A stretch of 29,220 bases of DNA from an uncultured Verrucomicrobiota bacterium (GTDB lineage Bacteria > Verrucomicrobiota > Kiritimatiellia > RFP12 > UBA1067). Location: contig CAMEZU010000001.1 in the NCBI GenBank assembly GCA_945947925.1, forward strand, positions 1 to 29,220, read 5' to 3'. The stretch's first letter is position 1. Each line of letters starts with the position of its first letter. Shown one piece after another: positions 8,068 to 20,347 of this stretch. The notes below the pieces were generated by a model. That model was given only the letters and a program-made list of their open reading frames with translations, had not been told where the DNA came from and ran no database searches. A program made the translations under genes and the position numbers.

Positions 8068-10008
8068 TCAGCGCACGAGCCGACGCGTCGAGATGCGGCC
8101 GTCGTCGGTCCGCAGCTCCAGGACGTTCTCGCCCTTGCGAAGCGGCACATCCGTCCATCGGACGACCTTGACGACGTCCGGCACCTGCGTGCCGACCGGT
8201 CTGCCGTTCGCGACCAGCGTCACGGGGCCGCGGTTGCAGAAGCCGACCACCGTGCAGGCGGCGTTCGCGGTCTCCGTCGCGCGCTGCGAGCAGATGTGAA
8301 GGACGGGCTCTGCGGACCAGTTCGCCTTGTAGAAATAGAAGGCGTCCTTCTTCACCGCGCGGTCGCGCGTGACGAGTCCCTTGTCGTTGATGCCGTTCTT
8401 CCCGCCCTCGCGCCGCGCATCCGCCGCAAAGTCGAACATCGCCCAGATGAAAGTTCCCCAGAGCTGCGGCTCGGCGACGATCTCACGGTAGTCCGCCGCA
8501 TGGAGCTTCACCTGCGTCTCCTCGGGATGCAGGGGACCGCCCGGATCGAGCCGTCCCGGCGGCAGCGGATCGAGATGCTCGAACGGATTGCCGCCCGCCC
8601 CGTATTCGGCGATGCCCATCATCTGCCGCCCCGAGGCGGCGAACCACTGCTCGATGTCCTGACGCATCGTCGTATCACCGTACCAGCCCGGATAGGCGTT
8701 GAAAGCGAGCTGGTCGGGCAGGTCGTTCAGCAGACGGCGCGGCTGACGGTCGGAAGCCGCCACGATCGGACGCGACGGATCCAGCGCGCGAATCTGGTCG
8801 CGGCAGTCGGCGAGAATCGCCTCCATCCACCCTTCCTCGTCGCGGTCCGGCGGAACGCTGTTGTAGATTTCGTTGAAGAGGGACCACGCGAAGACGCACG
8901 GATGGTTCCGGTTCTGCGCGACCATCTCGCGCGCCTGCTGAAGGAGATTCGCCTTGAACGCCGGCGACTTCGCCAGCCAGTTGATCGCGGGCTCCTCGCA
9001 CCAGACGAGAAGCCCGAGCCGATCGCAGAGATCCATCACGCGCCGGCTCTGCGGATAGTGCGCGAGCCGCACCGCATCCGCGCCCGTCTCCTTGATGAGC
9101 CTGAAGTCGCGTTCGTCTTCCTCTGCCGTCGCCGCCCAGCCGTGCGCGCCGACATCCTGATGACGGTTGACGCCGCGCAGCTTGCGCTTCTGTCCGTTCA
9201 GGTAGAAGCCGTCCGCCCGGAACTCGACCGTGCGAAACCCAAACGGCACGTCGATTGCATCGCCGCTCTCGATCTCGATGTGCACGGAATAGAGCTTCGG
9301 ATGCTCCGGACTCCAGAGCTCGGGCGAAGGAAATCGGAAGGTCTGCTTCACCGTCGACGCGATGGCCCCCATCGCGTGTTCAGGGCGCAGCACCCGCACG
9401 GTCGCCACCACCGTGCCGTTGGTGTTGACGTCGAGCGTCACGCCGTCCGCACCGTCCGTGACGGGATCGATGCAGACCGGCGGCGTTTCGAGCCATTCGA
9501 CCTCGCGATAGATGCCGCCCATCAGCGTGTAGTCCGCACTCAGCGGCGCCAGGTCGGGATTGTAGCGGTTGTCGGCGACGACCTCGAGCACGTTGCCGGT
9601 TGGCTTCATGAACGGCGTCGCCTCCACCGTGAAGGCCGTAAACGCGCCCGCATGCGTACCGGCGAGGCGTCCGTTGATCTTCACCGTCGCCTCGCGCGAG
9701 ACGGCCCCGAAGCGGACGAACTGGCGGCGCCCCGGCGTCGGATCGGGCAGTGCCCGTGTGTACACGGCCGCCTTGCGCACGTAGGTGTCAGGCGAGACGG
9801 ACATCCCGTAGCGGTCATACGCGTTCGTGCCGACAGGCTTCGCCGGCTCGCCATCCGCACCGTCAATGCCGTTCCAGCAATGCGGCACGGTGACCGCCTC
9901 GCCGTCGCACGTCCACCCAGGACCGGAGAGCGACGTCACCCTCCGTCCGGCGAAGGCCGAGGACACCCAGACCGCGCACACGCCGACAATCAAGAACCGA
10001 AGCTTCAC
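8068..10008 (-). CDS. Secreted GH2 glycosidase (beta-galactosidase/glucuronidase type, DUF4982-like C-terminus)
   Basis: PELWSPEHPKLY, FYLNGQKRKLRGVNRHQD, VRLAHYPQ, RNHPCVFAWSLFNE, IAEYGAG, WAMFDF, GINDKGLVT. Probable start is GTG 10008 (then KLRFLIVGVCAVWVSSAFA), 1 nt past the upstream TAA. Confidence 0.88.
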   Translation of the reverse strand: MKLRFLIVGVCAVWVSSAFAGRRVTSLSGPGWTCDGEAVTVPHCWNGIDGADGEPAKPVGTNAYDRYGMSVSPDTYVRKAAVYTRALPDPTPGRRQFVRFGAVSREATVKINGRLAGTHAGAFTAFTVEATPFMKPTGNVLEVVADNRYNPDLAPLSADYTLMGGIYREVEWLETPPVCIDPVTDGADGVTLDVNTNGTVVATVRVLRPEHAMGAIASTVKQTFRFPSPELWSPEHPKLYSVHIEIESGDAIDVPFGFRTVEFRADGFYLNGQKRKLRGVNRHQDVGAHGWAATAEEDERDFRLIKETGADAVRLAHYPQSRRVMDLCDRLGLLVWCEEPAINWLAKSPAFKANLLQQAREMVAQNRNHPCVFAWSLFNEIYNSVPPDRDEEGWMEAILADCRDQIRALDPSRPIVAASDRQPRRLLNDLPDQLAFNAYPGWYGDTTMRQDIEQWFAASGRQMMGIAEYGAGGNPFEHLDPLPPGRLDPGGPLHPEETQVKLHAADYREIVAEPQLWGTFIWAMFDFAADARREGGKNGINDKGLVTRDRAVKKDAFYFYKANWSAEPVLHICSQRATETANAACTVVGFCNRGPVTLVANGRPVGTQVPDVVKVVRWTDVPLRKGENVLELRTDDGRISTRRLVR

Positions 10009-10009
10009 C

Positions 10010-11857
10010 TTACCACACACCCTTCGACCTCTTCTCGTACAGCTCGCCGCCGATCCTGCGGGCGGCACGGGTCAGCGCGGGATACGGACGGTCGCAGACG
10101 TCCACAAAGCCGATCTGATACGCCTCGCCGTCCCCGCGTCCGAGGAGCGGCTGGTCGCGGTACTGGAACCAATGGCAGCCGACGATCCACGGATGAGCGA
10201 GGCAGCCTTCGACGAAGCGCGTGTAGCTGCGGGCGCGCTCGGTCTGATTCCAGACGGGCGCAAGACCGGGCTTGAACATGCCGCGGTCGTAGCAGCCGAA
10301 GTGGAACTCGCCGACGAGGATCGGCTTGTCCCGGCCCTTGTCAAAGATCTTCTCAGAGATGTTGTAGACCGAATTCGCGTAGGCGTTCACGGTCACGACG
10401 TCGCAATACTTCGCCGCCGTGCGCCAGAGGAGTCCGTCCTGACGGAAGCCGACGAAGCGACTGCCGAGATAGAGTTTCCCGGGCGCGGCCTTCGCGAGCT
10501 CCTCCCGGCAGAGGCGGAAGTAGAGGTCGACGTACGGCGCGGCCTTCGCAGGGCCGACGTCGGGAATCCACTTCTGGAACTGCAGCTCATTGTCGATGAA
10601 GAAGCCGATGCACATCGGATCCTTCGCCGCATGCCGAAGCGACGGGTCCGTCGCGAACTTCTCGCGGATCGCCGCACGGAACTTCGCCTCGAAATCGGGC
10701 GCGGTGAAGTCGTAGATGTGGAACTTCGGATGGCGTTTCACGCCCTTCGCGCGCTCGAGCACGCAGGAGACGTAGGGCTTTCGGGAGGCGAGCGAGAGCT
10801 CCGGCGCGCTCCAGTTGCCAATCGTGTTGAGTCCCCACGAATCGAACCGCCTGAAGACGAGGTCGTAGTAGTCGGACGCGAAGTCCTTCTTGCCGAACTT
10901 CTTCTCGAGGTTCCAGATCGTGAACGCCATCTTGCCGTCCGCGGGAATCTCCCCTTGGTACCATGTCGGATGCTTCGACGCGTCCGTGATGTCCGTCATG
11001 ATCCGCGTCACGTCGAGGCCGACGGAGAAGAAGAGGTGCCCCTCCGGCGTCACGAGCCACCATTTGCCATCGACCTTCTCGGTGCGGAAGTGCCCGGTCG
11101 CCTTCAGCTGCGGACCCGTCGCCCAGCCGCCGAAGCGGTCCCAACTCTCGGGCGCGGGCTTGAGTCTCTTCAGCTCGCGCGCGAGATCCCCCTTGAGGTC
11201 GTCGTCGGACGCGACCTTGAACTTCCAGTTCGCGTGCGCGAACTGTCCGTACCTGTCGACGAACGGCACGTACTTCTCCGCCGCGACAGCGCGAGCCGCG
11301 TACGGTTCGCCCTCAAGCCGCAGGTTGGAGAGACGGAAATCGGGAAGATCCTCCCGCTCCTCCTCGTACGGCCACTGCATCTGAAAGGAGACTTCCGTCA
11401 CATGATGCGTGTCGATCACATTCGGACCGCGTGCGTCCGCAGGCGCACCGTAGATCTCGGGATGGGTGAGCAGGAGCTTCATCGTCCCCTTCTCGCCAGG
11501 GTTGAGTCCGATGCCCGTGTTGACGGACCTGTTCTTCCTGAAGATCGCCGTCGCGTGATCCCCCGAGTCGCCGCTCGCGCTGCCTGCGGAGACGTGCATC
11601 GTGAGCCGCCCTTGCCGCGTCTGCGACAGGTTCTCGACATCGACGGCCAGATACTTCGCCCGAGAGAAGTCCTCTCCCGCCGCAGACGTCCACTTGAGTC
11701 CAGCCCCCCATTCGGCGCTGTTCAACACGAGGACGACGCAATTTGTCCCCTCGCGCTGCACCTTCGCCGTGTAGACGGGAGAAAAGTCCTCGAGGGTCAG
11801 CGCGGACGCACCCAGCGAAACAGACAGGAGACCTGCAGTCAGAAGAAGGCTTTTCAT
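10010..11857 (-). CDS. Secreted GH50 (beta-agarase family) glycoside hydrolase
   Basis: DRFGGW...ATGHFRTEKVDGKWWLVTPEGHLFFS, WGLNTIGNWS, IGFFIDNE (acid/base), LYLGSRF, VGEFHFG (nucleophile), VGCHWFQYRDQP..GR.DGE; signal peptide present. Confidence 0.85.
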   Translation of the reverse strand: MKSLLLTAGLLSVSLGASALTLEDFSPVYTAKVQREGTNCVVLVLNSAEWGAGLKWTSAAGEDFSRAKYLAVDVENLSQTRQGRLTMHVSAGSASGDSGDHATAIFRKNRSVNTGIGLNPGEKGTMKLLLTHPEIYGAPADARGPNVIDTHHVTEVSFQMQWPYEEEREDLPDFRLSNLRLEGEPYAARAVAAEKYVPFVDRYGQFAHANWKFKVASDDDLKGDLARELKRLKPAPESWDRFGGWATGPQLKATGHFRTEKVDGKWWLVTPEGHLFFSVGLDVTRIMTDITDASKHPTWYQGEIPADGKMAFTIWNLEKKFGKKDFASDYYDLVFRRFDSWGLNTIGNWSAPELSLASRKPYVSCVLERAKGVKRHPKFHIYDFTAPDFEAKFRAAIREKFATDPSLRHAAKDPMCIGFFIDNELQFQKWIPDVGPAKAAPYVDLYFRLCREELAKAAPGKLYLGSRFVGFRQDGLLWRTAAKYCDVVTVNAYANSVYNISEKIFDKGRDKPILVGEFHFGCYDRGMFKPGLAPVWNQTERARSYTRFVEGCLAHPWIVGCHWFQYRDQPLLGRGDGEAYQIGFVDVCDRPYPALTRAARRIGGELYEKRSKGVW

Positions 11858-11884
11858 AGGGATATTTTACCGAAATTTCGCGTT

Positions 11885-11924
11885 GGCAGGGTGGGCGCTC
11901 CGCGCCCGCCGGGAGAGTCCCGGC
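11885..11924. repeat. REP-like pair of overlapping hairpins
   Basis: GGTGGGCG-CTCCG-CGCCCGCC (11890-11910), preceded by GGCAG, resembles GTAG-type REPs. It overlaps the perfect hairpin GCCGGGA-GAG-TCCCGGC (11908-11924). Confidence 0.5.
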
Positions 11925-11945
11925 AAGCGACGGAGCCGGAATCCA

Positions 11946-14510
11946 TCAGCGGATGACGATGGAGAAGCCTGTCAGCTTCTGACACTCGAAACATCCGATG
12001 TCAATGCGGTTCTTCCCCTTGACGTCAAACACACGCGGATTACCCGCAAGGTCAACGGAGGGCAGTAGAGCAAGACCTGTCTGCGTACCCATGTTCACGG
12101 CCGAACCACCAGTCTTCAGCGTATAGTCACCCTTCGCGAAGTCCTTGAAGATCGATGATAGCGGCGCGGCGAAACTCTTCGACGAGAGCGTTACCGTATC
12201 ATCCGTCAGATTGTTGTCGAACGTGCAGTGCTCAAGATCAACCTTCGCCGACGTATACTTCGCCTTGCCCGTCTCATAGTTACCGGCAATGATGTTGTTA
12301 CGCAGGCGACCGTACCAGGTCGTACAATGAACACCCGCCGAATCCTCTGCCAGCGAGCCCTCGACGACATTTCCGGCGATCGTGCAGTTCTCGACCTGCG
12401 TATTGTTATTGCTTCCGCCGAAACGGATACCGGCAGCACCCGAACGCGCCGTATCGCCCGACGTCACATAGCGGTTCGCGGCAATCAGCGAATTGCTGAT
12501 GCGGCCGTTCTGCGAATTGTAGGGCACGAACACGGCGCCGCCCGCCAATCCCTGATTGCCGGACGTTCCCTCGACGACATTGTTCGTGATGACGCAATGC
12601 GTGAGCGTCGCGCCACTTCCGAGTTCGACGCCGCCACCGGCCGCATTGCTTGCGCCGACAAGCGCATAGCCGCCACGGATGACGCAGTTCGAGACAACGC
12701 CGGACGCCAGCCGGAGGTTCGCACCGTTCGCATCCTTGACGCGTCCGTTCTCGATCGTCACGTTTGCAAGGGAGGCTCCGGCATTGTTTAGCTCAATGGT
12801 TCGATGATAGTAGGTGTCGGGCGTCTCGGTCGTATTGCGCAGGATCACGCCCTCCGGCGTCGCGCCGAGACCGACGATCGTCAGGGCCTTGCCGACGGAT
12901 GTCTGATCCGTCGTCTCGTAGACGCCTTCTCCCACGAGAATGGTGTAGCCGTCCGCAGATGCCGACACAGCAGCCTTCAACGAAGCAAACCCCTTCTCCG
13001 GCGTGTCATACGGGAATTCCGGCTTGGCATTCCCCAGCGTCACATAGACCGTATCCGAGGCGATCTGCGCATACCCGTCATAAACCATCTCGGCCTCTTC
13101 CTCTTCGGATTCATTTCGCGCCGTGATCGTCACCGTGTAGACACCGGGCTTTTCGTACGTATGCGTAATCGTCCCCGTCGCCACCGTCTCGGGACCCGAT
13201 CCGTCGCCGAAATCGTAGGTGAACGTCACATTCTCAGGGGACGCCGAATTCTCCGCAACATGCGTAAACGTCGCAACCGCCGGGGCCGTCGTCTGATCAA
13301 GCGTCATGCCGCTGATGCGCACGATCATGTCCGGCTTCTGAAACTCAAAGCAGCCGATGTCAATTGTGCCGCTCATGCGCGGATGGCCCTCGAGATCCGT
13401 CGTCGAAGCGGATGCGCCCCGCGGATCCGCCCCGCCCGCATCGATCAAGGCGGAACCCTGCGCCGGATGATAATCACCCGCCGCGTAACCGACAAAGTCG
13501 TTCTCATCAATCACCACCAGCGTCGGGAAGGTGGTCGTCGACAGCGTATTGGCCGCCATCGCGCAATTGATGAACTGGGCGTCCGTAGACGTGGGCTGGT
13601 TGCCGCTCCATTCCCCGACGGTTCCATCCAGTTTACGATTGCCGAAGATCACGCAGTTGACGAGCGTCTGCTTGGCGTCCCAAGACCATACGCCATACGC
13701 CTTGTTGTTGACGACCGTCGTGTTGTACACCTTGCTCCCGGATGCCTGCAGCATCAAGCCGCCGCACTCGCACTGCTCGATCAGACAGTCTTCAACCTCG
13801 GCTCCGTTATTTCCGATTTGCACGCTGCCGCGCTCATAATAGAACGTGCCATCCTCTTTCTTCGTCGTCGTACCACCGATCATGTGGCAACGGCTCATCT
13901 TCGCTGCACCGTTCATCATAACGTTAACGCCCTTGGAAGTATCCCAAGCCGTGCCAGTGCTTTTGATCTGACCATCGCGAATGACACAATCAACTATCGT
14001 ACCGCCCGAAACGTAAATGTTTCCGCCATTCGACGTCGCCACGCCGTTCTTCACGACACAGTTCGTGAGCGTACCTCCCGACATCTCAATGACGCCACCT
14101 CTATCAGCCTTGGATTCGGGATGTCCTTCAAGCGTCAGGTTTTCGACCCAGGCACCCGAAGCCATGCGCAGCGTACGATGCGATCCGTCGGACTTGATGA
14201 TCACGTCGTCACGCGTCGCGCCTTCACCGACCATCTTCACGCACAAGTTCGGGCCCCACTTCGAGTTATTGTCCGCCGCACCATCGTCGTGGTGCGTGAG
14301 ATACGTACCTGGCGCAACATGAATGACGTCACCCGCCGCACGCGCCGTCACGACAGCCTTGGTGATTGTCGCGAACGGTGCCGAGGTCGAACCGTCGTTG
14401 TCGTCACTGGCATTGTCGCCACCGACATAGTAATCGGCGGCCAGCACACGGACACCCGCCGTGAACGCCAGCGCAACCGCCGCAAAATTCTTGATCCTCA
14501 GAGTAGCCAT
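11946..14510 (-). CDS. Secreted protein with two right-handed beta-helix modules, each ending in a choice-of-anchor-Q-like motif, separated by a PKD domain
   Basis: AGGAG then MATLRIKNFAAVALAF. Module starts YYVGGDNASDDNDGST..PFATI and VYVT..DTPEKGFASL; GG/GA-x-hydrophobic beta-helix turns; DLEGHPRMSGTIDIGCFE and DLAGNPRVFD..IDIGCFE; PKD FTYDFGDGS..THTYEKPGVYTVTIT; ends TGFSIVIR. Confidence 0.8.
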   Translation of the reverse strand: MATLRIKNFAAVALAFTAGVRVLAADYYVGGDNASDDNDGSTSAPFATITKAVVTARAAGDVIHVAPGTYLTHHDDGAADNNSKWGPNLCVKMVGEGATRDDVIIKSDGSHRTLRMASGAWVENLTLEGHPESKADRGGVIEMSGGTLTNCVVKNGVATSNGGNIYVSGGTIVDCVIRDGQIKSTGTAWDTSKGVNVMMNGAAKMSRCHMIGGTTTKKEDGTFYYERGSVQIGNNGAEVEDCLIEQCECGGLMLQASGSKVYNTTVVNNKAYGVWSWDAKQTLVNCVIFGNRKLDGTVGEWSGNQPTSTDAQFINCAMAANTLSTTTFPTLVVIDENDFVGYAAGDYHPAQGSALIDAGGADPRGASASTTDLEGHPRMSGTIDIGCFEFQKPDMIVRISGMTLDQTTAPAVATFTHVAENSASPENVTFTYDFGDGSGPETVATGTITHTYEKPGVYTVTITARNESEEEEAEMVYDGYAQIASDTVYVTLGNAKPEFPYDTPEKGFASLKAAVSASADGYTILVGEGVYETTDQTSVGKALTIVGLGATPEGVILRNTTETPDTYYHRTIELNNAGASLANVTIENGRVKDANGANLRLASGVVSNCVIRGGYALVGASNAAGGGVELGSGATLTHCVITNNVVEGTSGNQGLAGGAVFVPYNSQNGRISNSLIAANRYVTSGDTARSGAAGIRFGGSNNNTQVENCTIAGNVVEGSLAEDSAGVHCTTWYGRLRNNIIAGNYETGKAKYTSAKVDLEHCTFDNNLTDDTVTLSSKSFAAPLSSIFKDFAKGDYTLKTGGSAVNMGTQTGLALLPSVDLAGNPRVFDVKGKNRIDIGCFECQKLTGFSIVIR

Positions 14511-14545
14511 AAACAGTCTCCTCATCCTGAAGTGATGATGTCTAC

Positions 14546-14554
14546 ATTGTAGCA
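14546..14554 (-). promoter_or_regulatory. Extended -10 (TGC-TACAAT) of the beta-helix gene
   Basis: TGn+TACAAT preceded by an AT-rich spacer; no consensus -35. Confidence 0.6.
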
Positions 14555-14570
14555 AAAACCAAGTTTTTGA

Positions 14571-14609
14571 CATATCCTAAACCGCACCTTTTGCATATCC
14601 AAAACCGCA
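14571..14609. promoter_or_regulatory. Tandem direct-repeat operator candidate, copy 1
   Basis: CATATCCTAAACCGCA (14571-14586) and CATATCCAAAACCGCA (14594-14609): 15/16 identical, 23-bp period, over the expected -35 position. Confidence 0.7.
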
Positions 14610-14613
14610 AGAC

Positions 14614-17600
14614 TTACTTCATGCTGTTCTTGAGCCTGCCGGCTTGACGATAGTCGTACATGTTCTCGCCGACCTCACGGGCCGCGCGGGTCAGCCAGGG
14701 GTAGGTGCGGTCGCAGACATCGACGAAACCGACCTGGTACGCCTCGCCGTCGCCGCGGCCCTGCAGCGGCTGGTCGCGGTACTGGAACCAGTGCGCGCCG
14801 ATGATGTTCGGATGCACGAGCGCCCCCTGCATGAAGCGCGTGAGCGAACGGGCGCGCTCGGCCTGGGTGCCGACGGGACAGAGCCCCGCGCTGAACATGC
14901 CGCGGTCGATGCAGCCGAAGTGGAACTCGCCGTGCAGGATCGGCTTGTCGAAGCCGTTGCCGTTGAGAAGTCCCTGCTGCACGTTGTAGATGGAGTTGCA
15001 GTAGCCGTTGATGGAGACGACGTCGCAGAATTCGCCGGCCGCGGACAGGATGTAGGACGACTGGCGGTAGCCGACGAGACGGCAGCCGAGATAGAGCTTG
15101 TTCGGTGCAATCGCCTTGATCGCCTCGCGGCAGGCCTTGAAGTACGCGCGGTAGAATTCCTTTTCGTCCCCACCCGAGGCCGCCGCGGCGCCGCTGATGC
15201 CCGGTTCGTTGTCGATGAAGAAGCCGATGCACATCGGATCCGTCAGCGCCTTCTTGAGCGCCGGATCCTTTGCCGCGTTCGCCTTCACCGCGGCCTTCAG
15301 CTTCGTCTCGAAGTCCGCGGCGAAGCAGTCGTACCACGCGTAGTTCGACAGCGTCGGGACGGACGAGTCGCGCGAGTAGATCGTGCAGACGTACGGCTTG
15401 CGTCCCTTCTGGCAGAGCGCGCCCGCGCTCCAGTTGCCGATCGTGTTGATGCCCCAGGAGTCGAAGCGGTCGAGGAGGAAGTCGTAGTACGGCTCGGTAT
15501 ACGCACTTGTGCCGAACTTCTTCTGAAGGTTCCAGAGCGTGTAGGACATGCTGCCCCTCTTGTTCACCCCGTCGGCGTACCAGGCGGGATGGGCGGGACC
15601 GCTCGACGCGTCCGTCATCGTCCGCGCGACGTTCATCCCGAAGGAGAAGAAGAGGTGTCCCGACGGGGTGACGAACCACCACCTGCCGTCGACCTTTTCC
15701 GTGCGGAAGTGTCCCGTCGCCGTGCGCTGCGGACCGTTCGCCCAGCCGCCGTATTCGTCCCAGGTCGCGGGCGCCGGCTTCAGTTCCGCACGTTCGCGGA
15801 CGAGATCCTCGACGAGCTGCACGTCGTTCGTCACCTTCGCCGACCATTTGTCGTGGATGAACTGTCCGTAGTTGTCGACGAACGGCAGGTATCTCTCGCG
15901 CGGCACGGCGCGGGACTTGTCCGCGAAGGACACCAGCCTGAGGTTCGACACCTTGCAGTCGACAAGTCCCTTGAACTCGTTCTCGTACGGCCACTGGATC
16001 TTGAATGCGATGTCCGTCACATGGTGCGTGTCAATCGTGTACACGCCCTTCGCACCGTCCGGATAGCCGTAGATATCCACATGCGGCAGCAGGAGCATCA
16101 TCGTGCCCTTCTCACCGGGATTGAGGGCGATGCCCGTGTTGACGGAGCGGTTCTGCGCCAGGATCGCCGCGGCATGGTCGTCCGAGTCGGTGATGACGCC
16201 GCCCGCTGACACGTGCATCGTCAGGCGCATCTGCCGCGTCGTCGAAAGGTTCTCGACGTCCGCCGCGAGGTAGCGGCCCTGCGAGAGGTCGACGCCGTTG
16301 CTGTTCGAATAGAGCGCGCCCGTGCTCCATTCCGCGCTCGGCATCTGCAGGCGCACGGCCCCCTTGCCCAACTTCAAGACCGTCGCCTTGTAGACGGGTG
16401 CGAAGTCCTCCATCGTGAACGGCAGCGGATCCGGCTGCGGCTCGGTGATGGAGATGAAGAACCCGTGGAAGATCTGCTTCTTCACGCGGCAGTTCTGGAA
16501 GAACGCGACGGCCTGATGCTCCTTCGCCCAGGAGGAACCCGCAAAACCGACGTAGAGCCGTTCGGGCCAGCCGTCCAGCGACCGCGTCGCGACCTTGCGT
16601 CCGTCGATGTAGACGTTCAACTTACCTTCGAGACGCTCGAGGCCGATGCGCGCCGTGCCCGTGCCGAGGTTCCGCGAGAAGAACGTCGTGAGCGCCGCGC
16701 CCGTCCGGTTGCGCATCTGCGCCATCAGGCGTCCGTCGGCATACGACCGCACCGCCGTGATGCAGCGCGCGTTCGCCGCGGTCGGCGACTCGCGCACGCA
16801 GAGTCCGAGGCGGCGCCACACGCCCTTGCCCCCGTTGTATCCTGTCGGCAACGAGACGTTCGCCTCGATGAGGAAGTCGCCGTCCATCGGCCGCGCGAGG
16901 AAGTGGATCGCGTCGGTCGTCAGTCCGTTGTCGAACGACCCCTCGCCGGACGAGGCCAGGAAGGTGAGGTCGAACGCGTCGGGGCGGCGTCCTCCCGTCG
17001 AGAGCGTCCCTTCGAGGATCGAGTTGCCGGGGATGGACGTCCCGATGTCGTAGTCGCGCCAGGCGCCGAAGACGCCGTCCCGGTCGAGCCGCACGGGAGA
17101 AGACGCCGTGCGCGTCGTCGACAGCCATTCCTTCGGCAGCGGCGCCCAGTCCGTCCCGTCCCGCCGCCAGGCGAAGGAGAAGCTGCCGGAGCCCGTGCCG
17201 TTCCCCTTCCTCCACATCACGTTGATCGGATAGCGCCGGCCGGCCGTGAGGCGGATCCACCCGCTTTCGTCGGTCCGCGTCCCGGTGACGCGGTCGAACG
17301 CCGTGAAGACGTCGGTCCCGCCCAGCGAGAGCTTGGCGCAACCGTTCGCGTAGCTCTGGCGGAACCGGTAGTAGCCGCTCACAGGCACGGTGAGAAAGCC
17401 GTGCCACAGCGAATAGAAGTTCTGGCGGTCGACCGTCTGGCCCGCGTCGGTGACGTAGGGACCGTCCGCCACGTCCCAGGCGGACGGCAGCGTGCCGATC
17501 AGCGTCAGGTCCGGCATCGCGGCGGAAGGTCCGTCCTGCCACGACCGGTACACGGCCTGCCAGAGCCCCTTGCCGTCCGGCGTCCGCTGCGTCGGCGCGA

Positions 17601-19038
17601 GCGTCGCCGTCATCGCCGGCAGGGTCGGCCAGGCGAAGCCGAGCGACCAGAACGAGGCGGCGTTCGCCGAGACGGACAGCGCGACGCCCGTGTCGCCCTT
17701 CCAGGCATCGATCGTCTTTGCGCCGCTCGCGGGCACCGAGACGCGCGCCACCGTCCCCGTCATGCCGTCGGGCGCCGCCTCCGTCACGGTCACCGTCCAG
17801 CCCGCCACGAAGGAGGCGCAGGCGTCCGACCACCACCAGCCCTGGCTCCCCAGCCGCCGCCCCGTCACCTGACGGCGCTCGGCGTCCGTCCCCGTCATGA
17901 CGCGACAGGTCAGTGCGCCGGACGCTTCCCGTGTGACGGACAGTTCGGGCGTCACGCTCACGGGCACAAACGAGATGCGCGAGAACCGCGCCGTCTCGGT
18001 CTTGGACTGCGACCGCGAGAAGACGCCGGGACCGACGCGCAGGTCGCCCGCCCAAAGCCCCGTGGCGGCGATCTCGCCCGCGTTCGTCCAGACGCCCGTC
18101 GACTGGCAGAACGCCAGCGTGAGGCGTCCCTGGCGACGCGTCAGCCGAAGCGGCACCTGCGCCCCGGCGGCGAACGCGTCCGGCACCTGCGTCGCCTTCA
18201 CGGCGCCGCCCTGCTGCGCCCGCACGGCGAACGTCACGCCGCTTCGGCGGACGGCGAGCGAGACGCCGGGACAGATCGCATTCGTGAGCGAGGTGCGCGC
18301 CACAAGCGCCGCCGCGCCGTCCTGCGGCACCGTGCAGGTCGCCTGCAGGACGAAGTCATCCGTTCCCGTCGGCAGCGTGAGCGTGTCGATCTCGTCTCCG
18401 TCGTACATGAAGCCGCGGCCGACGCCCGTCAGCTCGAAGACGCGGGCGGTGGCGTCGTAGGCTACTGTGCCGTAGGCTCTGCGTTGTCCGTAGCCGAAGA
18501 AGGTCCAGGGCTCGGGCACGGGCTCGAGCAGGTTGCCCGAGATCCAGATCGTCTCGTTCGCCGCGACGTCCAGGAGGCGGATCTGGCAGAGTTCGCTCCC
18601 CGTGCCCTCGCGGTATCTGAAGGAAATCGGGTAGCGCCGGTTCGCCTCCAGTTCGATCGGCTCGCTGAACTGCTCCTTGCCGGACGCATAGTTCGGCTGG
18701 TCGATGACACACCGTCCGTTCAGGTGGAGGACGAGTCCGTCGTCAGCGATCGTCTTGAACCGATAAGCGCCGGACTTCGTGACGTGCAGCACGCCGTTGC
18801 CGCGCACCGTGAAGTTGTCAAACGCGGCGAGTCCGTGCGGCGCACCGGACGGCAGCCGACGATCCGCAGCGACGTCCCACGGCTTGTAGTAGGTCGTCGT
18901 GTTGACGTAGGCGCCGCAGACGGCACCGTCCTGCTCGAACACGAGCTGGAGTCCGCCAGGCGCGGCGATGCCCCGCCACGCGGGAAGACAGGCGAGGGCG
19001 CAGGCGCAGAAGAGTCCGAAGGATCGGGGGGTGGTCAT
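14614..19038 (-). CDS. Large secreted multidomain protein: (PA14 + ConA-like/DUF1349-like sandwich) x2 fused to a C-terminal GH50 hydrolase
   Basis: AAGGAG then MTTPRSFGLF signal peptide. PA14 motifs GAYRFKTIADDGLVLHLNG..YPISFRYREGTG and GYYRFRQSYANG..YPINVMWRK. Sandwich motifs FVLQAT..AALVAR and IHFLARPMDGDFLIEANV..GLCVRE. The C-terminal ~600 aa carry all GH50 motifs (FIDNE, HGEFHFG, HWFQYRDQP). Confidence 0.85.
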   Translation of the reverse strand: MTTPRSFGLFCACALACLPAWRGIAAPGGLQLVFEQDGAVCGAYVNTTTYYKPWDVAADRRLPSGAPHGLAAFDNFTVRGNGVLHVTKSGAYRFKTIADDGLVLHLNGRCVIDQPNYASGKEQFSEPIELEANRRYPISFRYREGTGSELCQIRLLDVAANETIWISGNLLEPVPEPWTFFGYGQRRAYGTVAYDATARVFELTGVGRGFMYDGDEIDTLTLPTGTDDFVLQATCTVPQDGAAALVARTSLTNAICPGVSLAVRRSGVTFAVRAQQGGAVKATQVPDAFAAGAQVPLRLTRRQGRLTLAFCQSTGVWTNAGEIAATGLWAGDLRVGPGVFSRSQSKTETARFSRISFVPVSVTPELSVTREASGALTCRVMTGTDAERRQVTGRRLGSQGWWWSDACASFVAGWTVTVTEAAPDGMTGTVARVSVPASGAKTIDAWKGDTGVALSVSANAASFWSLGFAWPTLPAMTATLAPTQRTPDGKGLWQAVYRSWQDGPSAAMPDLTLIGTLPSAWDVADGPYVTDAGQTVDRQNFYSLWHGFLTVPVSGYYRFRQSYANGCAKLSLGGTDVFTAFDRVTGTRTDESGWIRLTAGRRYPINVMWRKGNGTGSGSFSFAWRRDGTDWAPLPKEWLSTTRTASSPVRLDRDGVFGAWRDYDIGTSIPGNSILEGTLSTGGRRPDAFDLTFLASSGEGSFDNGLTTDAIHFLARPMDGDFLIEANVSLPTGYNGGKGVWRRLGLCVRESPTAANARCITAVRSYADGRLMAQMRNRTGAALTTFFSRNLGTGTARIGLERLEGKLNVYIDGRKVATRSLDGWPERLYVGFAGSSWAKEHQAVAFFQNCRVKKQIFHGFFISITEPQPDPLPFTMEDFAPVYKATVLKLGKGAVRLQMPSAEWSTGALYSNSNGVDLSQGRYLAADVENLSTTRQMRLTMHVSAGGVITDSDDHAAAILAQNRSVNTGIALNPGEKGTMMLLLPHVDIYGYPDGAKGVYTIDTHHVTDIAFKIQWPYENEFKGLVDCKVSNLRLVSFADKSRAVPRERYLPFVDNYGQFIHDKWSAKVTNDVQLVEDLVRERAELKPAPATWDEYGGWANGPQRTATGHFRTEKVDGRWWFVTPSGHLFFSFGMNVARTMTDASSGPAHPAWYADGVNKRGSMSYTLWNLQKKFGTSAYTEPYYDFLLDRFDSWGINTIGNWSAGALCQKGRKPYVCTIYSRDSSVPTLSNYAWYDCFAADFETKLKAAVKANAAKDPALKKALTDPMCIGFFIDNEPGISGAAAASGGDEKEFYRAYFKACREAIKAIAPNKLYLGCRLVGYRQSSYILSAAGEFCDVVSINGYCNSIYNVQQGLLNGNGFDKPILHGEFHFGCIDRGMFSAGLCPVGTQAERARSLTRFMQGALVHPNIIGAHWFQYRDQPLQGRGDGEAYQVGFVDVCDRTYPWLTRAAREVGENMYDYRQAGRLKNSMK

Positions 19039-19070
19039 GGGGACAGGTCTCCTTTTTCGATGATGCTGAG

Positions 19071-19076
19071 ATTCTA
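19071..19076 (-). promoter_or_regulatory. -10 element (TAGAAT) of the PA14-GH50 gene
   Basis: TAGAAT upstream of the AAGGAG RBS; same spacing to the tandem repeat as at the beta-helix promoter. Confidence 0.55.
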
Positions 19077-19095
19077 CACGATGGCAAGACATTTT

Positions 19096-19143: not shown

Positions 19144-19173
19144 TTGCGCTGAGACATGCCGGCATGATAGAAT
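19144..19173 (+). promoter_or_regulatory. Sigma70-type promoter of regulator 1
   Basis: TTGCGC (19144-19149), 18-nt spacer, then TAGAAT (19168-19173) with TG extension. It overlaps the track's ATG 19172, which favours ATG 19184. Confidence 0.55.
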
Positions 19174-19183
19174 GGCGTCACGA

Positions 19184-20347
19184 ATGAAGACGATCCTGTT
19201 CATCACCGACCTCCACACGGGATCGCGCGTTCCCGAACTCGCGGGCGTGCGCGAATTCGCGGTGGCGCACGACTGGCATGTCGAGGAAATCGAGGTGGCG
19301 CGCCTCGCACGCCCCGTAGCGGACGTCCTGCGATATTGGAATCCCGAGGGCTGCATCCTCGAGGGATCCTCCAACCTCCTGCCGCCCGCCGAGGAATTTG
19401 GCAACATCCCTGCCGTTCATATCGATGCCGGCGAAGCGGTGGTCAAGGACAAGGCGACATTCGTCGTCTCCAATGATGACGCGGCGATAGCGGACCTGGC
19501 GCTGAAGGAGCTGCTAAAGTCCGACTGCAACGCCTACGCCTTCGTCGGCTGGAGCGCCCGCGTGGCCTGGAGCCGCCACCGGCAAGAGCGCTTCGTCGCG
19601 CGACTCTCGGAAATCGGACGGACGTGCCACGTACTCACGGACCCGTGGACTCTCGGCAACAAGGACGACTTCGCCACGCGTCTCCGCCCCTGGCTTGAGG
19701 CATTGCCCAAGCCCTGCGGACTCTTCGCGGCGAATGACGACATCGCCGCCGCCGTCCTGGACGTCTGCACGATGGCCGGCATCTCGGTGCCGGGCGACAT
19801 CGCCGTCATCGGCGTCGACAACGTGTCCGCCTTCTGCGACAACCTGCGTCCGTCCCTCTCCAGCGTCGAGCCCGACTTCCGCGGCGGCGGACGCATGGCG
19901 GCCGCCCTCCTCCACGAACGGCTCACGAATCCGGCGACGCGTCCGCAGAAGCTCACCTACGCGCCGCTCGGCGTCGAGCCACGCCTTTCCACGCGACGGC
20001 TGGCGTTCTACGGACGCCGCCTTCTCACCGCCCTAGACCTCATCCGATGCGACGCCTGCGCGGGTCTCAAGGCTGCGGATGTCGTCAAGGTCATGGGCGT
20101 CTCCGAGCGCCTCGCCGAGACGCGCTTCAAGGCCGCGACCGGCCACCGCATCACAGAGGAGATCCGCGAGAATCGCTTCCGCCGCGCCTGCGAGCTGCTG
20201 TCGAACCCGCGCCAGGCGATCGGACCGATCGCCACGCTCTGCGGCTGGGAATCGGAGGCCTTCATGAAGCGGGCGTTCAAGGCCCGCTTCGGCTGCACGA
20301 TGCGCGAATGGCGCGACAGGCAGACGACGCGGAGGGCGCACGCATGA
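19184..20347 (+). CDS. XylR-type transcriptional regulator (periplasmic-binding-like sensor + C-terminal AraC HTH)
   Basis: LPKPCGLFAANDDIA, VPGDIAVIGVDN, LSSVEPDF; AraC end RFRRACELL..IGPIATLCGWESEAFMKRAFKARFGCTMREWR. Divergent from the CAZyme cluster. Confidence 0.9.
   Translation: MKTILFITDLHTGSRVPELAGVREFAVAHDWHVEEIEVARLARPVADVLRYWNPEGCILEGSSNLLPPAEEFGNIPAVHIDAGEAVVKDKATFVVSNDDAAIADLALKELLKSDCNAYAFVGWSARVAWSRHRQERFVARLSEIGRTCHVLTDPWTLGNKDDFATRLRPWLEALPKPCGLFAANDDIAAAVLDVCTMAGISVPGDIAVIGVDNVSAFCDNLRPSLSSVEPDFRGGGRMAAALLHERLTNPATRPQKLTYAPLGVEPRLSTRRLAFYGRRLLTALDLIRCDACAGLKAADVVKVMGVSERLAETRFKAATGHRITEEIRENRFRRACELLSNPRQAIGPIATLCGWESEAFMKRAFKARFGCTMREWRDRQTTRRAHA

Follow-up and report, generated by a model that had tools for sequence, protein, structure and literature searches.

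Organization of the fusion gene

The window analysed here, the entire 29.2-kb contig C1 of a fragmented metagenome-assembled genome (MAG; genome G000, 2.04 Mb, 312 contigs, about 81% complete), carries on its minus strand a gene (14614..19038) that combines PA14 and ConA-like modules with a module of glycoside hydrolase family 50 (GH50). It is followed by a beta-helix/PKD gene and a standalone GH50 gene, then by a GH2 gene, a GH3 gene, a melibiase-like gene and a large GH2 gene. Very probably, this gene arose by fusion of a binder gene with a GH50 gene and still holds, inside its product, the relic of the tag with which the binder used to end.

The gene lies in a single uninterrupted open reading frame (ORF) that runs from 19092 to 14614. 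Residues are numbered here on its full translation, P0001 (1492 aa counted from 19092). The starts of the orthologues place the start of the gene at M19 (MTTPRSF, 19038), which gives a protein of 1474 aa. A Sec signal peptide was predicted by eye at residues 19 to about 44 (18961..19038), and hydrophobic N-termini are conserved in the orthologues. PA14 is present twice (Pfam PF07691, 89.1 bits against a cut-off of 24). The first copy covers residues 45-190 approximately (18523..18960), with its best PF07691 stretch at residues 90-168 and a match to the RsgI3 PA14 domain in the PDB. The second spans about residues 505-665 (17098..17580), with a Pfam GLEYA/PA14 match at residues 562-640. An AlphaFold2 (AF2) model of residues 505-900 (predicted local distance difference test score, pLDDT, 88.5) places a ConA-like jelly roll directly behind this PA14 domain. 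The Foldseek matches of the PA14 domain are MpAFP and the RsgI3 PA14, while the jelly roll, a LamG/DUF1349-type domain at about residues 666-873 (16474..17097, pLDDT >90) whose last strand is AVAFFQNCRVKK, matches Emp47p, ERGIC-53 and CBM66 with a Foldseek probability of 1.0 and TM-scores of 0.38-0.65, depending on the target.

Between the two PA14 copies, a ConA-like/DUF1349-like domain may occupy about residues 196-376 (17965..18507). Its hhalign match to the second ConA-like domain is weak (E 0.0012, probability 19%, 140 columns), and sub-threshold DUF1349 matches in the homologues P0018 and P0019 seem to fall in the corresponding region. It is followed by a beta-rich spacer domain of about 125 aa (residues 377-504 approximately, 17581..17964), which is conserved in the orthologues and collinear with residues 698-813 of the unfused homologue P0015, and which has no family match in Pfam or NCBIfam.

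Past the last ConA strand, the seam reads VKKQIFH-GFFISI-T-EPQPDPLP-FTMEDFAPVYKATV. It consists of the putative fossil tag GFFISIT (residues 877-883, 16444..16464; GFFISI itself being residues 877-882, 16464-16447) and the Pro-rich linker EPQPDPLP (residues 884-891, 16420..16443). The GH50 module (residues 892-1492, 14614..16419), an N-terminal beta-sandwich with a (beta/alpha)8 barrel, opens with FTMEDFAPVY. An internal start at Met894 was considered and set aside, because no Shine-Dalgarno-like sequence precedes this codon in the seam DNA. The predicted secreted protein thus has the order signal peptide-PA14-putative ConA-spacer-PA14-ConA-tag relic-linker-GH50. A preliminary description of this DNA had given the seam sequence and the GFFISI coordinates correctly and had proposed the order PA14-ConA-PA14-ConA-GH50. 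Both PA14 domains, the second ConA-like domain and the GH50 module of that order were recovered, whereas its first ConA-like domain corresponds to the weak match above and the spacer had not been listed.

The GH50 module and its standalone paralogue

The ConA-like and GH50 parts of the protein have no match in Pfam or NCBIfam, so the GH50 identity was established through the PDB and the fold. In a phmmer search of the PDB, residues 892-1492 matched the exo-beta-agarase Aga50D (E 1.3e-58), AgWH50C (3.1e-58) and PfGH50B (6e-58); the standalone GH50 matched Aga50D with an E value of 4e-66. The 17 best Foldseek matches of an AF2 model of residues 655-1492 (m0feebb1cce7e) were all GH50 structures, with TM-scores up to 0.65. 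The solved GH50s Aga50D (4BQ2), AgWH50C (5Z6P), PfGH50B (6XJ9) and BpGH50 (5T3B) share the beta-sandwich and (beta/alpha)8 fold of the module (Foldseek E about 1e-38 to 1e-40) and both catalytic Glu residues of clan GH-A. E1296 (FIDNE, 15205-15207) aligns with Asn533-Glu534 of Aga50D and E1389 (GEFH, 14926-14928) with its Glu695; Glu534 and Glu695 are the catalytic residues of that enzyme (PMC11079163). They correspond to the acid/base Glu of the N-E motif and to the nucleophile Glu, respectively, and both are invariant in the seven fused forms. The module differs from the solved enzymes in its low identity to them (about 22-25%), in a shortened loop after the DNE motif and in the roughly 860 aa of PA14/ConA-like modules that the fusion adds at the N-terminus. 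Moreover, it belongs to a large clade of animal-gut Kiritimatiellae GH50s, defined here, that has no characterised member. The fusion represents a new conserved multidomain layout in a poorly studied family.

The standalone GH50 of the window (P0004, 10010..11857, minus strand, 615 aa) has its own signal peptide. Its start reads MKSLLLTAGLLSVSLGASA, followed after the signal peptide by LTLEDFSPVY. Residues 892-1485 of the fusion align by BLASTP with residues 20-613 of this protein at 56% identity, so that the alignment starts with the first mature residue of the standalone enzyme, just where FTMEDFAPVY had been likened to LTLEDFSPVY in the preliminary description. The GH50 part had also been called duplicated. 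It is indeed a paralogue of the standalone copy, but in the tree all fused GH50 parts group in a single long-stemmed clade (100/100 support), apart from the co-occurring clade of standalone 616-aa proteins, and the closest unfused protein is at most 57% identical. By this placement, the fused GH50 is an old paralogue of the standalone copy and not a recent duplicate.

A C-terminal tag in the genome

The pattern G[FLMYIW]x[IVL]x[IVLF][RK]-stop ends 14 ORFs of at least 150 aa in the 2.04-Mb MAG, against 0.56 expected from the overall frequency of the motif, the Arg/Lys ending being fixed by the search pattern. The presence of this tag at C-termini is thus more than chance. The complete tag-ended ORFs have signal peptides and unrelated folds. 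Among the proteins that end in this way is the beta-helix/PKD protein next to the fusion (11946..14573, minus strand), which ends in LTGFSIVIR-stop, with the tag GFSIVIR at 11949-11969; the tails of its orthologues are GFAVVVR at locus L001 and GFALFVR at L002. The reported likeness between GFFISI and the tail of this neighbour was therefore found to hold. The relic in the fusion shares with the seven-residue tag of Kiritimatiellae the Gly-hydrophobic-x-hydrophobic-x-hydrophobic core, a location a few residues beyond the final strand of a lectin-like domain, and the presence of a signal peptide on the carrier protein. Genuine tags, in contrast, are C-terminal and end in Arg/Lys, whereas the relic is internal, is followed by 609 residues and carries Thr (Ser or Gly in orthologues) at the last position. 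No convincing second case of an internal tag with a Pro-rich linker was found in a genome-wide scan, and literature searches returned nothing relevant on C-terminal sorting in Kiritimatiellae or on a seven-residue tag.

Two further observations concern such tails. Large proteins encoded beside binder or fusion genes (L021:4119-7502 and L001:17825-20122) end in GTVLILR and GLTIIVR, respectively, and tag-bearing genes seem to cluster. In addition, the distant ConA-like homologues P0032, P0039, P0061 and P0086 end in W-x-[IL]-[YFH], sometimes with one residue more (GNWSIY, KDWMLH, GNWQLFQ, SEWSLY), which may be the C-terminal tag of another lineage on the same kind of domain.

Unfused binders and homology of the seam

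With the 890-aa N-terminal part as query, a word-indexed search yielded fused orthologues and nothing else. Unfused homologues surfaced only in an exhaustive search of 1.84 billion representative proteins with a profile of the second PA14-ConA pair and the seam. In 13 unfused homologues the PA14-ConA module lies at the extreme C-terminus and is followed by a tail; they comprise P0015-P0022, P0025 and P0035 (about 1180-1260 aa) and the shorter P0023, P0034 and P0066. P0015-P0022 (about 1190-1250 aa) are metagenome proteins of Kiritimatiellae type, all annotated only as 'hypothetical protein'. Residues 43-869 of P0001 align with residues 342-1176 of P0015 (32% identity, 859 columns, E 2e-110), so the entire N-terminal part is collinear. 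Across P0015-P0022, the order PA14-ConA-spacer-PA14-ConA is common to the fusion and the binders at 30-38% identity, and like the fusion the binders are linked to GH50-family genes, here as neighbours. Unlike the fusion, they bear an extra N-terminal LamG+Fn3 piece (about 320 aa), a free tag with a stop codon and no catalytic domain.

Examples of the endings of the unfused proteins are FLSNAEFTVLPRKSTVMVIR, PPKPTVLVFR, PIAFRIIVR, GSVMILK, GTMILLR, GSILILR and GSCVIIR, with tails such as STVMVIR and PTVLVFR. A MAFFT alignment places the tails of all 13 opposite H-GFFISI-T with no gaps. At the position where the fused forms have Thr, Ser or Gly, the unfused proteins mostly end in Arg or Lys, two ending in Asn and one in Tyr. 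The more distant, tail-less homologues P0054, P0069, P0091 and P0093 stop directly past the F-x-N/D-V-x-V strand, which indicates that the ConA-like fold is complete before the tail. In agreement, the last strand of the AF2 models ends at K872-K873 and residues 876-883 have pLDDT values below 50 and no secondary structure, both when the PA14-ConA pair was modelled alone and when the whole GH50 was included.

Taken together, these alignments establish homology by descent between GFFISIT and bona fide C-terminal tags. They also support the earlier proposal that a tail-bearing binding protein was joined to a GH50 through a Pro-rich linker: unfused, tail-bearing relatives of the N-terminal part do exist, their tails match the seam without gaps, and the linker is conserved. 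The seam can be regarded as a natural experiment on the tag, which appears as a separate unit that lies beyond the folded domain and is passed on as the final seven residues. Once it was buried inside a protein, its basic end was lost and its hydrophobic register was kept.

Reality of the junction and distribution

The word-indexed search gave six clusters of fused orthologues of 1452-1474 aa with the same layout and 56-93% identity over the N-terminal query. One cluster holds 129 member sequences; 11 of its 15 listed members are full-length (1474 aa), mostly on contigs of differing lengths. Where fused members carry a name, they belong to MAGs of Kiritimatiellae recovered from rumen and goat jejunum. 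A 1-kb stretch across the seam is present in runs of 14 studies, mostly of pig gut, and assembled contigs, the material on which bridging was assessed, span the seam in four runs from four studies, one of them a metatranscriptome library. The GC content at third codon positions (GC3) is equal on both sides (0.907 and 0.900). A drop in GC along the gene was rejected as a sign of foreign origin, since GC3 is uniform and the drop is an amino-acid effect.

These results confirm that the fusion is a real gene of a pig-gut/rumen Kiritimatiellae clade, and the suspicion that the junction might be an assembly chimera is dispelled by the six orthologue clusters and the bridging contigs. Within the class, the fused form was found in one of 301 sampled genomes (G000). 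No paper naming GH50 together with PA14 was found in the literature, and a preprint on Kiritimatiellia synteny makes no mention of PA14, C-terminal tags or fusions. The gene thus combines known domain families in a new architecture, with the internal relic of a tag that is undescribed in the literature searched. Since locus and protein recur in pig-gut and rumen metagenomes of many studies, the enzyme may matter for the breakdown of fibre or glycans in livestock guts.

Conserved neighbourhoods of binder and GH50 genes

A cassette consisting of a tagged binder gene, a GH50-like gene and a GH50 gene was found in three lineages (L008, G300/L018 and L019). At L008, the gene of P0015 is followed after 76 nt by that of P0270 (650 aa) and then by that of P0263 (731 aa). 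In G300, a P0016-type binder gene precedes a 518-aa and a 725-aa gene, and at L019 the gene of P0018 precedes a 709-aa and a 774-aa gene. This conserved neighbourhood links the binder and GH50 families and makes the fusion a Rosetta-stone case. Together, fusion and cassette are evidence of that kind that PA14/ConA-like binders work with GH50 enzymes, and they provide a testable context for both.

A complementary fusion exists in another lineage. In P0264, P0267 and P0269 (963-987 aa), the LamG+Fn3 piece of the binder family is joined directly to a GH50. The LamG+Fn3 piece is 41-51% identical to residues 1-340 of P0015, so that, as in the fusion of the window, a piece of the binder family is combined with a GH50. 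The two cases differ in that this piece is the N-terminal one, the GH50 is of another clade and the seam has no tag relic.

The GH50-like paralogue of the P0270 type, which lies between the binder and the normal GH50 (L008:7893-9845; L018:4765-6321, minus strand; L019:3929-6058), has features of its own. None of the three copies has an evident signal peptide. In the L008 (SAFNFG) and L018 (GAFSFG) copies, the nucleophile Glu is replaced by Ala and the DNE acid/base motif is kept, and to judge from these motifs the paralogue may be a non-catalytic or mechanistically altered GH50. P0270 was considered as a direct relative of the fused GH50, with which it shares the local motif CPVGTQxERARSL. Its identity to every clade is about 43%, however, and its branch in the tree is very long; a direct relationship is not claimed.

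Probable origin of the fusion

Like the fused GH50 parts, the fused binder parts form one clade with 100/100 support. Under midpoint rooting of the binder tree, this clade is nested among unfused proteins that bear the tag, with P0017 as its neighbour (89/91). That each part forms a single fully supported clade fits a single fusion event, and the simplest reading of the trees is that it took place in the ancestor of the gut/rumen clade. The ancestor would have been a secreted, non-catalytic PA14/ConA-like glycan binder ending in the class-specific seven-residue tag (Gly-hydrophobic-x-hydrophobic-x-hydrophobic-Arg/Lys-stop), and binder genes of its family lie immediately upstream of genes of the GH50 family. 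One lineage would then have exchanged the binder's stop codon, the signal peptide of the GH50 and the intergenic spacer between them for a short Pro-rich linker (E-P-x-P-x-P), and a two-protein partnership would have become one multivalent enzyme.

Several points weigh against this account or limit it. We infer the direction of the event, fusion and not fission, from midpoint rooting and from the much wider distribution of tagged unfused proteins, the binder tree having no outgroup. The fused GH50 is of the 616-aa standalone type and not of the P0270 or P0263 type that adjoins the unfused binders; the exact ancestral gene pair is thus not observed. The fused binder lacks the N-terminal LamG+Fn3, which implies more than one rearrangement. 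Characterised GH50s comprise both beta-agarases and beta-1,3-glucanases (PMC11079163), so that more than one substrate is conceivable. The metatranscriptome contigs that bridge the seam come from an RNA library and do not prove transcription.

Present state of the internal tag

Across the seven fused forms, the seam has no insertions or deletions. Gly877 is invariant and the hydrophobic positions change conservatively (F/L, I/V, I/L), while the two residues between them are highly variable (F/Y/S and S/K/Y/V), giving the variants GFFISI, GFFVSI, GFFIKI, GLYVYL, GFFVYL and GFSVVI. E884, P885, P887 and P889 of the linker are invariant. Every fused form has Thr, Ser or Gly in place of the terminal Arg/Lys. 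With 609 residues behind it, the segment has no free C-terminal carboxylate and is therefore not a true tag but its relic or internal derivative. Lacking both the free carboxyl end and the terminal basic residue, it has most likely lost the canonical role of an end-tag. The alternating hydrophobic pattern appears to be still constrained, perhaps because it pairs as a strand with some partner; neither AF2 model shows such a partner within the protein.

The segment could nevertheless still be at work as a tag, in line with the processing or sorting site suggested in the preliminary description, either by docking the fusion onto a tag reader of Kiritimatiellae through beta-strand augmentation or by cleavage at the seam that would free a tag-ended binder and a GH50. 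Gly877 and the hydrophobic register are kept although the orthologues have diverged at as many as 44% of positions, and the segment is exposed and disordered in the models, which is unusual for a hydrophobic stretch without a partner. A functional precedent is the plug of PilC/PilY1 in type 4a pili (Denic et al. 2026; bioRxiv 10.64898/2026.09.18.752573), a short tail with which a large secreted adhesin ends and which is disordered when modelled alone, binds by strand augmentation and still works when fused to PilK. The plug can serve as an analogy only, as it has no sequence relation to the tag, for which no pilin partner is known. On the other hand, each of the seven fused forms has lost the terminal Arg/Lys, which predominates as the last residue of the 14 tails of the genome and of the 13 unfused homologues (three of these end in Asn or Tyr), and this weighs somewhat against a canonical tag role. 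There is also no known tag reader and no evident protease site, and seven sequences from about four independent lineages carry little statistical power. We regard a functional internal tag as a possible but rather doubtful explanation. If it were true, the tag would work without a free C-terminus and without a terminal Arg/Lys, and the fusion would be a natural probe for the reader.

It is considerably less probable that GFFISI is merely structural, an edge strand or inter-domain clamp of the ConA-like or the GH50 module whose likeness to the tag is convergent or irrelevant. Its alternating hydrophobic residues do resemble a half-buried beta-strand, and AF2 runs with alignments as shallow as these (20 and 32 rows) can miss packing. 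However, the four tail-less homologues show that the fold is complete without the segment, which in the 13 unfused homologues is the extreme C-terminus. The same tail ends proteins of unrelated folds, such as the beta-helix/PKD protein, and standalone GH50s have no equivalent upstream of their mature N-terminus. The idea that GFFISI is a conserved strand of the ConA fold, raised as an objection in the preliminary description, thus failed. If the segment neither docks or is processed nor forms a structural strand, it would be a slowly decaying fossil.

As to the reverse course of events, in which the fused state is ancestral, binder and standalone GH50 arose by fission and the tag evolved from the former linker, the unrooted binder tree and the long stem of the fused clade (1.16) would allow it, but it is very improbable, because the fused form occurs in only one of the 301 class genomes and a handful of gut/rumen MAGs, tagged unfused binders span several deep branches, and the tag ends many unrelated proteins, which the splitting of one gene does not explain.

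Predicted function

In the preferred explanation, a fusion that carries an internal relic of an end-tag, the product would be a multivalent, retaining GH50 enzyme exported by Sec. Its four lectin-like modules would hold a glycan, probably a beta-galactan or beta-glucan, which the tethered GH50 would cut. Judging by the GH2, GH3 and melibiase-like genes around the fusion, this glycan may contain galactose. In Victivallis vadensis, VadG925 is reportedly a beta-galactosidase.

Other features of the locus

At the loci of the fused relatives, the gene order is beta-helix/PKD gene with tag, 616-aa GH50 gene, fusion, and GH3 or GH2 gene. The three-gene order of fusion, beta-helix/PKD and GH50 is therefore cyclically permuted between the window (10010-19092) and the more distant relatives L001:3130-12330 and L002:2765-11713, the three genes being adjacent in all cases. 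A divergent regulator gene, which lies upstream on the plus strand (19172..20347), encodes a periplasmic-binding-protein-like domain and an AraC helix-turn-helix, as identified with Pfam. The same gene family flanks the L001 locus, and this regulator is a candidate for the control of the locus.

The beta-helix/PKD gene has a GC3 of 0.71, against 0.83-0.91 in its neighbours, perhaps a sign that its history or level of expression differs from theirs. In the adjacent GH2 gene (8068-10068, minus strand), the longest ORF overlaps the end of the standalone GH50 gene by 59 nt and has an Arg-rich beginning; translation probably starts at a more downstream site, close to the hydrophobic, signal-like segment KLRFLIVGVCAVWVSSAFA.

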